Below, piece after piece: positions 1,901-52,328 of a stretch of 64,000 nt of DNA. The notes below the pieces were generated by a model that worked only from the letters and a program-made list of their open reading frames with translations, was not told where the DNA came from and ran no database searches. Position 1 is the stretch's first letter. The number at the start of each line of letters is the position of its first letter. Source of the DNA: Candidatus Harrisonbacteria bacterium RIFCSPHIGHO2_02_FULL_42_16 (GTDB taxonomy: Bacteria; Patescibacteriota; Minisyncoccia; UBA6257; 02-FULL-45-10c); NCBI GenBank assembly GCA_001818695.1, contig MHJG01000009.1, positions 309 through 64,308 on the forward strand, given 5' to 3'. Both the position numbers and the translations under genes were made by a program.

Positions 1901-2606
1901 GTTCTTGTTTCTCTTTCTCTAAATTAAGCGTCTTATTTATATAAATCTGCTGGACTATGGAAAAGACCCCGGTTACCAGCCAATAAAGCCCGATAGCGGT
2001 AGGTAAACTGCTTAAAATAACAACGGTTAATATCGGGCCGAAATACACCATTTGCCTGCCAATTCTTTCCGGAGGCGATAATTCCTGCCCTTTCTTAATT
2101 TCCGGAAGCGTCAGCCGGCCCTGCCAATATTGCGCAATCGCCGCTAAACCAACCATAAGGATACTTCGTTTTTCCAAATCAATCAAGCCCAAAAACATAG
2201 GATTCAAGTGGGCAGGACTAACAATAAAACTATATAAATGAACAAAAATATCGGGAGAGAGTCCCTGTAAAAATACCTGATATAAAGCGATTAAAACCGG
2301 CAATTGAATAATAATCATCAAAAAACCGGAAAAAGGGTTTACTTCGTGCTTTTTATATAAATCCATCATCGCCGCAGCTTGTTTTTCCTTATTATCCTTA
2401 TGAGCATGCTGGATTTTTTTAATTTCCGGCTGAAGACGCTGTAAAATAATCTGATTCTTGGCGCTTTTATAAAAAAGCGGGGCAAAAATAAGCCGGATAA
2501 AAACAGTAAGCAGAATAATCGCTATTCCCAAGTCCTGAAAAGCGACGGTGTTGTATAAAAATACCAGCGCATTAATCAACGGATTATATAAAATTGTTTG
2601 AAACAT
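1875..2606 (-). CDS. yidC: membrane protein insertase YidC (short form)
   Basis: 243-aa multi-TM protein with YidC/Oxa1-like core, placed in the rpmH-rnpA-yidC-jag operon. Confidence 0.85.
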   Translation of the reverse strand: MFQTILYNPLINALVFLYNTVAFQDLGIAIILLTVFIRLIFAPLFYKSAKNQIILQRLQPEIKKIQHAHKDNKEKQAAAMMDLYKKHEVNPFSGFLMIIIQLPVLIALYQVFLQGLSPDIFVHLYSFIVSPAHLNPMFLGLIDLEKRSILMVGLAAIAQYWQGRLTLPEIKKGQELSPPERIGRQMVYFGPILTVVILSSLPTAIGLYWLVTGVFSIVQQIYINKTLNLEKEKQEHGIIETKN

Positions 2607-2629: not shown

Positions 2630-2980
2630 TTATCCGTTAGGCAGTATCTTACTTATGTATTCTTTTAATTTTTCTCCAACCTCTTCTTTTTTTAATTCTT
2701 TTATTGCCGGCGAAATAATTATCAAATAATCTTTGCCGCCTATTTTTTTACTATACGGCCTAACCAGAGAAAAAACCAGTCGGCGCAATTTATTCCGCCG
2801 TACCGCCAGACGCGCGATTTTCTTGCTGACAATTACGCCAAAGCGGCTGTAAGGAAGGGAATTTCTAAAGATTTTTATTAGAAAATACGGCGTTTTTACC
2901 GCCGTACTTTTTTCCTTCAACATTTTTTGTATCGGTAAACGGTATTTTTTTGACAGCATAAACCGCGCAACGCCGAACAA
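2630..2980 (-). CDS. rnpA: ribonuclease P protein component
   Basis: Small basic protein (KKYRLP..., RRNKLRRLVF...) immediately downstream of rpmH. The true start may be the internal Met (MLSKKYRL). Confidence 0.75.
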   Translation of the reverse strand: MFGVARFMLSKKYRLPIQKMLKEKSTAVKTPYFLIKIFRNSLPYSRFGVIVSKKIARLAVRRNKLRRLVFSLVRPYSKKIGGKDYLIIISPAIKELKKEEVGEKLKEYISKILPNG

Positions 2981-2988
2981 ATTAAATT

Positions 2989-3123
2989 TTAAACCGTCAA
3001 CCGCCGCCTTCCTTTTCTGCGCCTTCTGGACAAAACTCTGCGGCCCCCAAAAGTGCGGGCTCTCTTTAAAAATCCATGGACGCGCGCCCGTTTTTTCTTT
3101 CTTGGCTGGTAAGTTTGAGACAT
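2989..3123 (-). CDS. rpmH: 50S ribosomal protein L34
   Basis: Hand translation of the minus strand gives [44 protein letters not shown] (44 aa), a classic L34. It is not in the ORF track because it is under 60 aa. Confidence 0.85.
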
Positions 3124-3469
3124 AAATAATTATTAATTATAAAATGGTTATATTCCTTATTTACAGTATACGCTTATTCCTTAAAATTTTGCAAATTATT
3201 GAGCATCTCGCTGAAATTACTCGTGATTTCCCAATGTTTTTATGTTTTTGGCAATAAAACATGAACAAAAAGTGGGGTGTCGTTGCATAATTGTAAAAAG
3301 CGCGCTTTTTTCTTTTAAAAAATGTTTTCAACAGAAAATTAACAGCTTGTTCCATTTTTGCCATTTGACTATTAGGACGCTATAAAAGTAAAATTAAAAT
3401 ACTTGCGTAAATTTTTATCGGCTGCTTAAATACTTAAATTTTCTAAACCAATAACATCGTTGAAAAAAT

Positions 3470-17306: not shown

Positions 17307-17588
17307 ATGAAAAAAGCGGCGCTGGCAGTAGTTTTTGGATTGATGGTTTTAGTGTCGGTTCCGTCTGGTTTTTGCTTAAATAATAACAACCTGGAATCGC
17401 TTGAAAATCTTGAAAATGATGTCCTTCAACTTAAAAAAGAAATTGATAATCTTATTAAAGAAGTTAATAATCTTAACCTTAAAGTTAATAATCAGTTAAT
17501 AATCAGGAAAAAACTACTATTTTTCCCGTATGGGTCAATTATGACATTTCTGTGGAATCATTGGTTGTCCAGGGGAAATATGATTTGA
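17307..17588 (+). CDS. possible small secreted coiled-coil protein
   Basis: Signal-peptide-like N-terminus, then LESLENLENDVLQLKKEIDNLIKEVNNLNLKVNN heptads. The C-terminus runs into low-complexity sequence. Confidence 0.3.
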   Translation: MKKAALAVVFGLMVLVSVPSGFCLNNNNLESLENLENDVLQLKKEIDNLIKEVNNLNLKVNNQLIIRKKLLFFPYGSIMTFLWNHWLSRGNMI

Positions 17589-17983
17589 AGAGTAACGTCA
17601 TTACCGGTGAAAATTTTCCGACCACCAGAAAAGGCGAAGCCAACCTCATCTTGGAATTTGTGCAAGTTAGTAGCGAGGCGGTCACTTATGAAGAGGTGAT
17701 TGCCGGGCTTAAAAAGCGCGGTTTCCGGCCCGCCGAACTTCGCGAATTGCTCTCTTTTGGGGTTCAATACCCAAAGAAGTAGAGAAGAGATTACATTGTG
17801 GCGCTTGGTTCAGTTTGGCAGGACTGGCGTGGCGACCGGATCGTCGCATGTATCTACGGCGGTGCTGGCGGGCGTGGCCTGCTCTCGTGCTACCTCGATG
17901 GCAGGTGGAGCGGGAACTATTTGTTCTTGGTTACTCGCGAGTCCCAGTAAATTGGACTTTTGGAATATCGGACTTTTTTAAAA

Positions 17984-18024: not shown

Positions 18025-18074
18025 TATAAATTATCTACTATCTATGCGATCGCATAGATAGTAGATAATTTATA
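18025..18074. repeat. 50-bp perfect palindrome (left copy) TATAAATTATCTACTATCTATGCGATCGCATAGATAGTAGATAATTTATA
   Basis: Read directly. The core 38 bp is identical to the right copy except at one central base. Confidence 0.9.
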
Positions 18075-18094
18075 GGAGACCAATTTTTCAATAC

Positions 18095-24029: not shown

Positions 24030-24278
24030 CTAATTTATTAATTTTGTCAGCCGAGATTTAAGCCGCGCCGCTTTGTTCGGCTTTATGACTCCGGCTTTGG
24101 CGGTTTTGTCCAGCGCTTTATAGACATTGGATAGTTCGTTTTTAGCAGCCGCTTTATTGCTTGCCGCCATTTTTTTATAGTTTTTCAGAATTTTATGAAG
24201 CGTGTTTTTGCGCTGGAGATTTCGCGCTCTATGCCGCAGATTTTGCCTATATGCTTTTTTTGCTGATTTGGTAATCAT
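24030..24278 (-). CDS. rpsT: 30S ribosomal protein S20
   Basis: SAKKAYRQNLRHRARNLQRK... is a typical S20 sequence. Confidence 0.85.
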   Translation of the reverse strand: MITKSAKKAYRQNLRHRARNLQRKNTLHKILKNYKKMAASNKAAAKNELSNVYKALDKTAKAGVIKPNKAARLKSRLTKLIN

Positions 24279-24295
24279 AGTATGCGAATAATTAT

Positions 24296-24328
24296 TTAGG
24301 GTATAGGGTTTAGGGTATAGGTTATAGG
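24296..24328. repeat. G-rich TAGGG-type repeat block (intergenic copy)
   Basis: ttagggtatagggtttagggtataggttatagg. Confidence 0.7.
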
Positions 24329-24342
24329 AAAAAGAGTCAATG

Positions 24343-24371
24343 TTGACAAATAATTTTTAGTATGATATAAT
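24343..24371 (+). promoter_or_regulatory. consensus sigma70-type promoter (TTGACA - 17 nt - TATAAT)
   Basis: ttgacaaataatttttagtatgatataat: -35 at 24343-48, -10 at 24366-71. Followed by a G7 Shine-Dalgarno (aaggggggtga) and ATG at 24413. Confidence 0.5.
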
Positions 24372-24412
24372 TATACTGTTGTTTAAAAATTAAAAAAAAG
24401 GGGGGGTGATAT

Positions 24413-24625
24413 ATGGCGGATAATCAGAAGGGGAAGAAAAAAAAGGATGGTGGGAAGAAGGCCGGCCGGAACAAACGCTCCGTGGAGCGTTATTACAATT
24501 TCGGCGGATACGGCGGCGGTCCGGTGGCGCGCAAGCTTCGGCGGATTATCCGGTCGTCCGGTTTCGCCGAAGCGATGCGCTGGGCCGAGGAGCGCGGCGA
24601 AGTGGGAACGCTCCGCCATTTATAA
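24413..24625 (+). CDS. small basic Lys/Arg/Gly-rich protein encoded in a GC-rich (GC3-rich) patch; function unknown
   Basis: MADNQKGKKKKDGGKKAGRNKRSVERYYNFGGYGGGPVARKLRR... Codon third positions are mostly G/C, unlike the rest of the window. Consensus promoter, strong SD and terminator. Confidence 0.4.
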   Translation: MADNQKGKKKKDGGKKAGRNKRSVERYYNFGGYGGGPVARKLRRIIRSSGFAEAMRWAEERGEVGTLRHL

Positions 24626-24716
24626 GCAGAAAGGAAATTCGGTTCGCTGGATCGAACGCGCGGAGAAGCGCGCGTATGAGAAGTAGAACAAGGTTGCGTC
24701 CGCCTAAGACGTAATA

Positions 24717-24773
24717 AAAGCCCTTCCGACATTACCGTTACGGTAATCGTTCGGAGGGGCTTTTTGTTTTTTT
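24717..24773 (+). terminator. strong intrinsic terminator (GCCCTTCCGAC...GTTCGGAGGGGC + T9)
   Basis: aaaagcccttccgacattaccgttacggtaatcgttcggaggggctttttgttttttt. Confidence 0.6.
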
Positions 24774-24806
24774 AAATTAGTTTAGAAATCATATATAATA
24801 AGATTA

Positions 24807-25385
24807 ATGATTTATTCCGTAAAAGGATTGCTACGTCTTAAGAAACCTTCTTTTTTTGTGGTGGAGGTTGGCGGGCTGGCGTTTAAAATAAACAGTTCGG
24901 CTAATGCGCTGAAAAGTTTGCCGCGAGAAGGAGAAATAGTCAATGTTTTTACTTATCTTCATGTGCGCGAAGATGCTTTGGAGCTATACGGATTTTTAGA
25001 CGAAGCCGAACTTAATTTATTTTTATTGCTAATCGGAATTTCCGGAATCGGACCCAAATCCGCGCTTAGCATTTTGGGAATTGATAAAATAGAAAAATTA
25101 AAATCGGCGATTATTGAAGGCCGGCCGGAACTTTTGACTAAGGCGTCCGGAATAGGAAAAAAGACCGCTGACCGGATTATTTTGGAGCTTCGGACAAAAC
25201 TTAAACAGGAAGGAGCGGGCAGGATAGTCGGGCTGATGGAATCGGACCAGGACATTATTGAGGCGCTTTGCAATCTTGGCTATGCCAGAAACCAAGCCAG
25301 AGAAGCGCTTTCCAAAATTGATTCTCAAATTACCGCCGTAGATGAAAGAATTAAATTGACGTTAAAATTGTTGAAAAAAAATTAG
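24807..25385 (+). CDS. ruvA: Holliday junction DNA helicase RuvA
   Basis: OB-fold N-terminus IYSVKG..., two HhH motifs (GIGPKSA, GIGKKTA), domain III. Confidence 0.9.
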   Translation: MIYSVKGLLRLKKPSFFVVEVGGLAFKINSSANALKSLPREGEIVNVFTYLHVREDALELYGFLDEAELNLFLLLIGISGIGPKSALSILGIDKIEKLKSAIIEGRPELLTKASGIGKKTADRIILELRTKLKQEGAGRIVGLMESDQDIIEALCNLGYARNQAREALSKIDSQITAVDERIKLTLKLLKKN

Positions 25386-30729: not shown

Positions 30730-30801
30730 GTCCTCATAGTACAATGGATAGTACATAGCCCTCCGAAGGCTGAGATTGTGGTTCAATTCCACATGAGGAC
30801 A
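30730..30801 (+). tRNA. tRNA-Arg (anticodon CCG)
   Basis: Folded by hand. Acceptor GTCCTCA/TGAGGAC, D-arm GTAC-AATGGATA-GTAC, anticodon stem TAGCC/GGCTG with loop CTCCGAA, T-arm TGTGG-TTCAATT-CCACA. 72 nt, CCA not encoded. Confidence 0.8.
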
Positions 30802-42412: not shown

Positions 42413-42753
42413 GGGAGTGAAAAGCTTCGACAAATTATTTTCTATCAAATTAGCAAGCGGAGTGGCAACCTCATTAAAAGTTGCAAAACAATAAGTGCAA
42501 ACTTATTCAACAAACAGCCAGCTTTAGCTTACGCTTAACTGGCCATCGCTCAACTAAAGCTTGATAAGTTATTAAGCGGTGTCAAACATCAAGCTCTGCC
42601 TTGATACGCTGATATTCAAGGCGAAACTAATCAGCACAAAGTTTAAAGTGTTTTGTTAGATTATAGCTTTAAATTTTTCAAAATAATCTGACTAAGCTTG
42701 TAGAAAATTTGATAGTAATAATTTGGACGCGGATGCAATTTCCGCCACTTCCA
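42413..42753 (+). ncRNA. ssrA: tmRNA (transfer-messenger RNA)
   Basis: Starts 4 nt after the smpB stop. 5' GGGAGUG pairs with 3' CACUUCC (G3:U wobble as in tRNA-Ala), then discriminator A. T-arm GCGGA-UGCAAUU-UCCGC. Tag ORF GCA AAC UUA UUC AAC AAA CAG CCA GCU UUA GCU UAC GCU UAA (ANLFNKQPALAYA*) has the same ..AAUARGUNGCAAAC.. context as E. coli. Confidence 0.65.
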
Positions 42754-42825
42754 CTCCTTCGCTAAAACTACGGAGTGCGAGCACTACTTCAATAAAAAGT
42801 GCGAGCATTATTAGCTTTACCAAAA

Positions 42826-52256: not shown

Positions 52257-52328
52257 TAGTCCCGACGGGAATCGAACCCGTATTCCCACCGTGAAAGGGT
52301 GATGTCCTAGCCGTTAGACGACGAGACC
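52257..52328 (-). tRNA. tRNA-Glu (anticodon UUC)
   Basis: Minus strand GGTCTCG-TC-GTCT-AACGGCTA-GGAC-A-TCACC-CTTTCAC-GGTGG-GAATA-CGGGT-TCGATTC-CCCGT-CGGGACT-A. Anticodon loop CUUUCAC. 72 nt. The 3' end is 5 nt from the tsaD start. Confidence 0.75.

Follow-up and report, generated by a model that had tools for sequence, protein, structure and literature searches.

The stretch of DNA analyzed here, which we refer to as the window, comprises 64,000 nucleotides (nt) of contig MHJG01000009.1 of Candidatus Harrisonbacteria bacterium RIFCSPHIGHO2_02_FULL_42_16 (assembly GCA_001818695.1). Our subject is a small GC-rich gene on its plus strand, which lies between the divergently oriented rpsT and ruvA (24807-25385). 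From the RuvA protein encoded directly downstream, the organism can be assigned to the Candidate Phyla Radiation (CPR), where it is Harrisonbacteria-like. The GC content of the locus is about 60% compared with 40% for the window, and the initial annotation had offered two explanations for it, a horizontally acquired gene for a small basic protein or a structured RNA. We assume, with a probability of roughly 85%, that the locus is a monocistronic, vertically inherited gene whose small basic product is confined to one lineage, Candidatus Harrisonbacteria and their close relatives among the Patescibacteria.

The promoter of this gene (24343-24371, plus strand) matches the sigma-70 consensus at 12 of 12 positions, with the -35 box TTGACA at 24343-24348, a spacer of 17 nt, the -10 box TATAAT at 24366-24371 and a TG at 24363-24364 upstream of the -10 box. 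It is the only perfect match in a scan of the window; at up to one mismatch the scan returned three matches compared with 0.44 expected, a number reached in none of 100 shuffles. Judged from the position of the -10 box, transcription would start near 24378, which leaves a short A-rich 5' leader (24378-24412) with the Shine-Dalgarno sequence AAGGGGGGGTGA (24398-24409). Within it, a run of seven G (24400-24406) is followed by TGA, three further nucleotides and the ATG at 24413. The open reading frame (ORF) extends from 24413 to 24625 on the plus strand, ends with a TAA at 24623-24625 and encodes 70 amino acids (aa), for which an exact match exists in the databases. An intrinsic terminator at 24716-24775 consists of a GC-rich hairpin of the 21-bp class (24716-24764) and a subsequent U-tract, which together reach -31 kcal/mol in minimum free energy (MFE) folds; a simple scanner overlooked it because of its stem and loop limits. 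The predicted transcript is monocistronic and has a length of about 390 nt, from 24378 to the end of the terminator at 24775. Promoter, Shine-Dalgarno run, ORF and terminator are thus all present as the initial annotation had quoted them.

The same annotation had also recorded about 90 nt of further GC-rich sequence between the stop codon and the terminator. This sequence is present, but it turned out to be an overlooked part of the gene itself. The 90%-identity cluster of the 70-aa protein also holds the 90-aa protein P0141, which is encoded on the contig L047 of a close relative, and this contig can be aligned to the window from the promoter through ruvA. The DNA alignment revealed a 2-nt deletion in the window at 24613-24614 (CTC--CGCC against CTCATTGCC), whose exact position is ambiguous by a few bases and which shifts the frame into the TAA at 24623-24625. 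A first model, a 1-nt insertion in the TTT at 24619-24621, was replaced by this deletion after the alignment with L047. The GC content at third codon positions (GC3) points to the same event, as beyond about 24610, shortly ahead of the stop codon, its phase is that of the +1 frame. Read onward from there, this frame gives ...YKQKGNSVRWIERAEKRAYEK and closes with a TAG at 24684-24686. By GC3 phase and homology this out-of-frame remnant (24614-24686, plus strand; ...IAIYKQKGNSVRWIERAEKRAYEK) contains the fourth helix of the protein with RWIxRK, and it matches the C-terminus of P0141 (RQKGNLVRWIERAEKRAREK) as well as the C-termini of the L009 homologue, P0122, P0127 and P0129. With the two nucleotides restored, a 91-aa ORF is obtained that aligns end to end with P0141 (...GTLIAIYKQKGNSVRWIERAEKRAYEK vs ...GTLIAIQRQKGNLVRWIERAEKRAREK). 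We therefore read the further 90 nt as the gene's own C-terminus, recently put out of frame: the ancestral product has 90-91 aa and is cut to 70 aa here, with the remaining 73 nt of coding sequence intact in the wrong frame. As a side observation, the window and an independent contig of 744 nt (L001) differ at two positions only, 24600 (A>G) and 24603 (T>G; GAAGTGGGA against GGAGGGGGA). These lie 10-13 nt upstream of the deletion, and the spot may be locally variable or error-prone.

An identical 70-aa sequence is on record for Candidatus Harrisonbacteria as a hypothetical protein (OGY64117.1 / OGY67143.1); it occurs on 15 contigs and in two metagenome-assembled genomes (MAGs) at NCBI. When 5.8 billion proteins were searched through a word index, the 70-aa query retrieved one 97%-identical copy and nothing else. 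Back-translated patterns of the 70-aa ORF found no relatives in viral, genome and metagenome collections, and a hand-made degenerate DNA pattern of the motif described below, run on species-representative genomes, gave 30 matches, of which three were true loci and 27 chance matches in GC-rich genomes. The 91-aa sequence that joins both parts served as query in an exhaustive run of phmmer, which added eight further proteins (E = 2e-6 to 9e-4), several of them aligned over the two parts. Profile searches led on to about 15-20 clusters among the 5.8 billion proteins, none of which has a name beyond "hypothetical"; their sources are without exception Ca. Harrisonbacteria or Paceibacter-like Patescibacteria. 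The profile matches span residues 5-90 of the composite query, and phmmer and profile searches overall gave E = 2e-6 to 1.7e-31. The family includes UniRef100_A0A1G1ZJW7, OGY64117.1 and P0122-P0141. Its motif RKLRRIIxSSGFxEAxRWAEKxG is conserved across at least 16 proteins, with L, R and G invariant, and the window copy agrees with it; SSGFAEAMR and YYNFGGYGGGPVAR are peptide segments of the predicted product. In the alignment a Lys-rich N-terminus with a conserved AG[RK] is followed by the core motif, a variable linker and a C-terminal (V/P)xWIxRK helix. This last helix is not in frame in the window copy, which is a truncated member of the family; a natural 67-aa member, P0128, ends at the same point and also lacks the helix. 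The gene is real and already deposited as a hypothetical protein, and it belongs to an uncharacterized, clade-specific family.

A comparison of the window gene with that of L047 revealed 44 substitutions, distributed 4/9/31 over codon positions 1, 2 and 3, and a ratio of nonsynonymous to synonymous substitution rates (dN/dS) of 0.12. Because the differences are codon-phased and dN/dS is this low, we conclude that the gene is translated and under purifying selection. Between more distant orthologues dN/dS amounts to about 0.2-0.55, with dS ranging from 1 to saturation, and most differences fall on the third position in all pairs but one. The start codon and the expression signals are conserved as well: TTGACA or TTGACT together with a good -10 box is kept 5' of the family orthologues, a GGAGG-type Shine-Dalgarno sequence stands at equal distance from the ATG, and a hairpin with a T-run, equivalent to the terminator in the window, follows 3' of every orthologue. 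The gene thus fits its earlier description: it encodes a small basic protein, and its expression signals are strong.

To place the gene in its genomic context, we used contigs from related genomes, in which RuvA shares 61-73% identity with the window protein. The order fpg - 268-aa gene - rpsT(-) - gene(+) - [uvrB(-)] - ruvA - Mur ligase was found in L002/3/4, L007/8, L009, L010/11, L012, L013 and L015; the 268-aa gene next to fpg has a weak Hda_lid match and is possibly holA. Six relative genomes carry the family homologue in the same slot, rpsT(-) | gene(+) | uvrB/ruvA, and the window copy likewise sits after rpsT(-) and before ruvA, with its own TTGAC promoter and intrinsic terminator. The close-relative fragment L047 is too short for the flanking genes, and its gene is GC-rich, too. 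The uvrB gene, which is located between the small gene and ruvA in most relatives, is missing there in the window and in L007. In the window the terminator of the small gene is directly followed by a promoter-like site for ruvA (24771-24799).

In segments of 200 nt the GC content rises to 0.63 here, higher than anywhere else in the window (mean 0.40, sd 0.064, z = 3.6). The ORF has a GC content of 0.61/0.48/0.70 at codon positions 1, 2 and 3 compared with a mean of 0.46/0.35/0.42 in the long ORFs of the window, and the top GC3 among the long-ORF sets examined was 0.54. The claim that its third positions set it apart from all genes of the window is valid as far as intact genes are concerned, but there is another coding-like GC-rich island at 17552-17950. 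When codons for the ORF's own amino acids were drawn from host usage, the expected GC3 was 0.44 (sd 0.054), and the observed 0.71 was reached in none of 5000 simulations. About half of the GC excess comes from the Gly-, Ala- and Arg-rich composition and about half from synonymous codon choice. The host itself favors GGC, GCG, CCG and CGG for Gly, Ala, Pro and Arg, and the departure from its usage is concentrated at Lys, Glu, Ile and Val. In the ORF, AAG makes up 6 of 9 Lys codons and GAG 3 of 5 Glu codons (host fraction 0.19 in both cases). Seven family genes pooled gave 0.74 for AAG and 0.62 for GAG (host 0.19 each), 0.73 for ATC (host 0.18) and 0.58 for GTG (host 0.23). Across the relatives the GC content of the family gene is 0.535-0.667 compared with 0.385-0.543 for the locus, and its GC3 is 0.63-0.95 compared with 0.30-0.48 in the long ORFs of each locus; all seven genes tested exceed the expectation from codon usage of their host (z = 3.7-9.6). 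Expression-linked codon bias was rejected as the cause, since the divergent neighbor rpsT, the single highly expressed control gene in this comparison, has a GC3 at or near the level of host genes in every locus. The borders of the GC-rich block coincide with those of the coding sequence, the untranslated tail included. This points to selection on the mRNA or its translation and not to a regional process like biased gene conversion.

The sharp compositional island, the codon usage unlike that of the host and the orphan character of a gene without wider homologues would all be expected of a gene that arrived recently from a mobile element or a GC-rich donor and whose composition has had no time to drift toward that of the host. 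The occurrence of orthologues at the same syntenic site in six relatives speaks against such an acquisition, and so does the fact that every orthologue is GC-rich although dS between them exceeds 1, because an imported composition would have decayed over this divergence. Moreover, promoter and terminator are host-like and AT-rich, neither integrase nor repeats, tRNA or mobility genes flank the locus, phage, plasmid and viral collections gave no match in tblastn and pattern scans, and GC-rich genomes contributed chance pattern matches only, with no homologue outside the clade. We regard recent transfer as very improbable and, as far as sequence comparison can tell, refuted: the gene is vertically inherited and its GC-rich codons are maintained clade-wide. 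The initial annotation had named homologues with normal AT-rich codon usage as a finding that would speak against its proposal; homologues were found, yet they keep the GC-rich codons. Its other explanation, that the transcript of about 390 nt is mainly a structured non-coding RNA (6S-like, RNase P-like or of a new class) or a dual-function RNA with an incidental or secondary ORF, also draws on the GC content far above that of the genome, since structural RNAs of AT-rich genomes usually stand out in this way. In MFE folding the transcript has a z-score of -5.1 (-2.7 without the terminator), a GC-rich cassette is kept in one relative with a different ORF (L016, see below), and no other cause of the synonymous GC enrichment has been demonstrated. 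However, the covariance models of Rfam 15, among them those of 6S, RNase P, SRP, tmRNA, riboswitches and leaders of ribosomal-protein genes, gave no match at the gathering threshold at this locus or at eight related loci. At E<=10 the region 24250-24850 returned noise, mostly from the terminator, with a best score of 20 bits compared with thresholds of 40-114. The only Rfam families in the window are a tmRNA (42413-42756, plus strand) and tRNAs at 30730-30801 (plus strand) and 52257-52328 (minus strand). As the tmRNA (136 bits) has a GC content of 36%, structural RNAs are not necessarily GC-rich in this organism. RNAalifold on seven loci yielded -3.1 kcal/mol with an unfavorable covariation term of +0.74, a test of limited power with seven divergent sequences, and in the consensus fold nothing is shared apart from the terminator and a weak hairpin that the motif sequence encodes. 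The proposed pairing of the transcript ends does occur in the MFE fold, with GGCGGAU at 24415-24421, but its 3' arm GUCCGCC lies at 24698-24704 instead of 24696-24702 and the pairing is absent from the consensus fold of the relatives. A long hairpin at 24525-24575 is specific for the window and is not reproduced in orthologues. Compared with dinucleotide shuffles the coding region folds with z = -2.7 in the window and +1.0, -0.3 and -4.7 in orthologues (neighbor genes -1.4 to +1.0). Together with the codon-phased substitutions at a dN/dS of 0.12 this makes an RNA as the main product improbable, and the structured-RNA proposal did not hold up.

The 2-nt deletion relative to the intact 90-aa allele raises the question whether the local copy is a dying pseudogene, or whether the frameshift is an assembly artefact and the true gene is intact. 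The sole differences between the window and L001 lie next to the deletion, perhaps in an error-prone or variable spot, and count in favor of these readings. On the other hand, promoter, Shine-Dalgarno sequence and terminator are perfect, the 70 upstream codons have evolved at a dN/dS of 0.12 without further lesions, the truncated product retains the conserved core, which is modeled with confidence, and P0128 naturally ends at the same point; judging from the sequence, the truncated form may have remained functional. As the 70-aa allele recurs on 15 contigs and in two MAGs, a one-off assembly error is unlikely. The allele is probably real, although a systematic error may be involved. Taken together, we consider a pseudogene or an artefact unlikely, but worth keeping in mind. 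An intact downstream frame that is still coding-like, and a G-rich Shine-Dalgarno-like stretch upstream of the stop codon (GGAGGGGG in L001), might also suggest programmed +1 ribosomal frameshifting, as in prfB, which would join both frames into the full-length product. We find this scarcely credible, as CAU-UUA-UAA offers no slippery codon able to re-pair in +1 and every intact orthologue, L047 included, is encoded in a single frame. For the latter reason we take the shift as a strain-level deletion and not as a conserved recoding site.

To get an idea of the product, the family alignment was used for structure prediction with AF2. For P0122 the model reached a predicted local distance difference test (pLDDT) score of 85-93 over residues 31-87, with helices at 32-44, 47-57, 60-68 and 72-86 and a basic tail of low confidence. 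The 70-aa protein of the window has helices at 36-48, 51-61 and 64-69, a pLDDT of 84-92 over residues 41-70 and about 50 in the N-terminal tail. The intact protein is thus predicted to consist of a disordered Lys/Gly/Arg-rich N-terminal tail of about 30 residues and a compact bundle of four short helices; the truncated product is predicted to keep the tail and three helices. The predicted fold gave no significant structural match. A resemblance to bS21 (LRRFKRS) was rejected, as hhalign against E. coli bS21 gave a probability of 0.15%, and Pfam searches of 12 family members gave no match at E<=1, to Ribosomal_S21 (PF01165) or to any other family. The predicted tail is basic and disordered, the helical core is compact and has an invariant Gly where two helices meet in a turn, and the gene has the strongest promoter of the window and is paired with rpsT in a neighborhood of DNA-repair genes. 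On these grounds we assume that the protein probably binds nucleic acid and is ribosome- or nucleoid-associated. Backbone contacts would be made by the basic tail, and specificity would come from the helical bundle.

In the interpretation that we favor, a vertically inherited gene for a small basic protein, the sigma-70 promoter located back-to-back with the rpsT upstream region would drive a transcript of about 390 nt that ends at the intrinsic terminator. Selection at the mRNA level might keep the GC-rich codons. A candidate reason is the stability of the transcript against AU-directed RNases, another the avoidance of slippery poly-A (AAA) runs in the Lys tail. Several points weigh against this interpretation. 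Sequence searches of Pfam, NCBIfam, PHROG, PADLOC and PDB with single proteins and profiles gave no match, and the excess of mRNA folding over shuffled controls is inconsistent among orthologues. From the sequence signals we suppose that the protein is abundant, and the truncated allele of the window may be non-functional. Furthermore, a seventh relative, L016, whose RuvA is 66% identical to that of the window, holds an unrelated 63-aa basic ORF in the same promoter/terminator cassette after rpsT (2953-3144; GC 0.65, GC3 0.86). The possibility that it is a scrambled or frameshifted family member was rejected by hhalign and six-frame tblastn. The slot or its composition may therefore be conserved beyond the protein family, or the gene may have been replaced in L016. 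A bolder idea is that the clade-wide synonymous GC, which selection maintains in this one small gene only and which extends to the non-homologous ORF of L016, marks a second functional layer. The transcript itself may be selected as an unusually stable or structured dual-function RNA, or a new CPR ribosomal or nucleoid protein may bind AT-rich nucleic acid, with its own gene GC-rich to escape the product. We regard such a layer in any of these variants, taken jointly, as rather unlikely.

The divergent region between rpsT and the small gene contains two further elements. An inverted repeat read from the sequence, GTCAA-TG-TTGAC (24336-24347), includes the -35 box of the promoter and is found as GTCAA-N(2-5)-TTGAC in seven of nine loci (window, L009, L010, L012, L013, L015 and L016), while it is degenerate in L002 and L007. 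As the length of the spacer varies, two separate -35 boxes fit better than a dimeric operator, and the repeat probably represents the back-to-back -35 boxes of rpsT(-) and the small gene(+). Between the repeat and the start codon of rpsT, Tandem Repeats Finder (TRF) detected an array of the heptamer TAGGGTA at 24297-24328 (period 7, 4.6 copies, 88% matches). The heptamers TAGGGTA, TAGCGTA and TAGCTTA occur at the matching position in L009, L010, L012 and L013. On the minus strand the units read TANNNT, which may resemble a -10 element of rpsT, or they may be part of the rpsT leader. In L012 (3809-3985) and L013 (3805-3981) the family gene is separated from the conserved promoter by a GC-rich leader of 220 nt. 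Both leaders carry a conserved upstream ORF of 58 aa (MEIRQKFCG...GEPVVFRKIR) with its own GGAGG, which has no Pfam match; the window does not have this ORF.

Outside of this locus, the second GC-rich island of the window (17552-17950, plus strand) reaches a GC content of up to 0.595 and contains two ORFs of 76 aa and 50 aa in the same frame (GC3 of the second 0.71), split by an in-frame TAG at 17780-17782. A hairpin terminator comes next, followed by a near-perfect palindrome of 46 nt at about 18030-18075. Neither ORF has a match in Pfam or among phages, and both are absent from the called proteins of the protein collection; the island may be a pseudogene or a readthrough gene. One relative only, L013, carries a gene or gene fragment for a 194-aa reverse transcriptase (RVT_1; 1938-2522, minus strand) between the fpg-neighboring and the holA-like genes. 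It could be a group II intron, a retron or the remnant of a diversity-generating retroelement (DGR).

With regard to annotation, a GC island in an AT-rich genome is usually taken as foreign DNA or structural RNA, and most likely it is neither here. We assume instead that this island is a fast-evolving, vertically inherited gene for a small protein, in which even the atypical codon usage is conserved. Over a divergence that has reached saturation, synonymous GC stays about 25-45 points higher than expected from the genome, which makes the gene a compact natural case for codon-usage theory, as neither mutation bias nor recent transfer would account for its GC3. For the biology of the CPR, whose genomes are minimal and in which very few lineage-specific proteins have been characterized, the gene offers a candidate for an abundant small basic protein specific for Harrisonbacteria, with the strongest promoter of the window and paired with rpsT. 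This does not overturn current views; the conserved codon anomaly in combination with the strong expression signals is noteworthy, and nothing about it is mechanistically new.

The dual-function RNAs SgrS/SgrT and RNAIII/hld resemble the locus as short, independently transcribed and strongly terminated transcripts with a small ORF and a nucleotide composition beyond what coding alone requires. They differ from it in that the locus described here shows no conserved structure or covariation, and conservation is found at the protein level. Genes of the prfB type have in common with the window copy that two consecutive frames encode one conserved protein with an in-frame stop codon at the junction, whereas here there is no slippery site, the orthologues are single-frame and the junction is a 2-nt deletion specific for a group of strains. 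Among proteins, the predicted product recalls small basic tailed ribosomal proteins such as bS21 and eL36, but is restricted to one small clade instead of being universal; eukaryotic eL36 gave matches at E ~1 with a TM of ~0.32. The other nearest systems are small HTH and winged-helix proteins (MarR-type wHTH, the C-terminal WH of MCM and SpoIIID) and the AT-hook-like tails of the H-NS/Lsr2 type.

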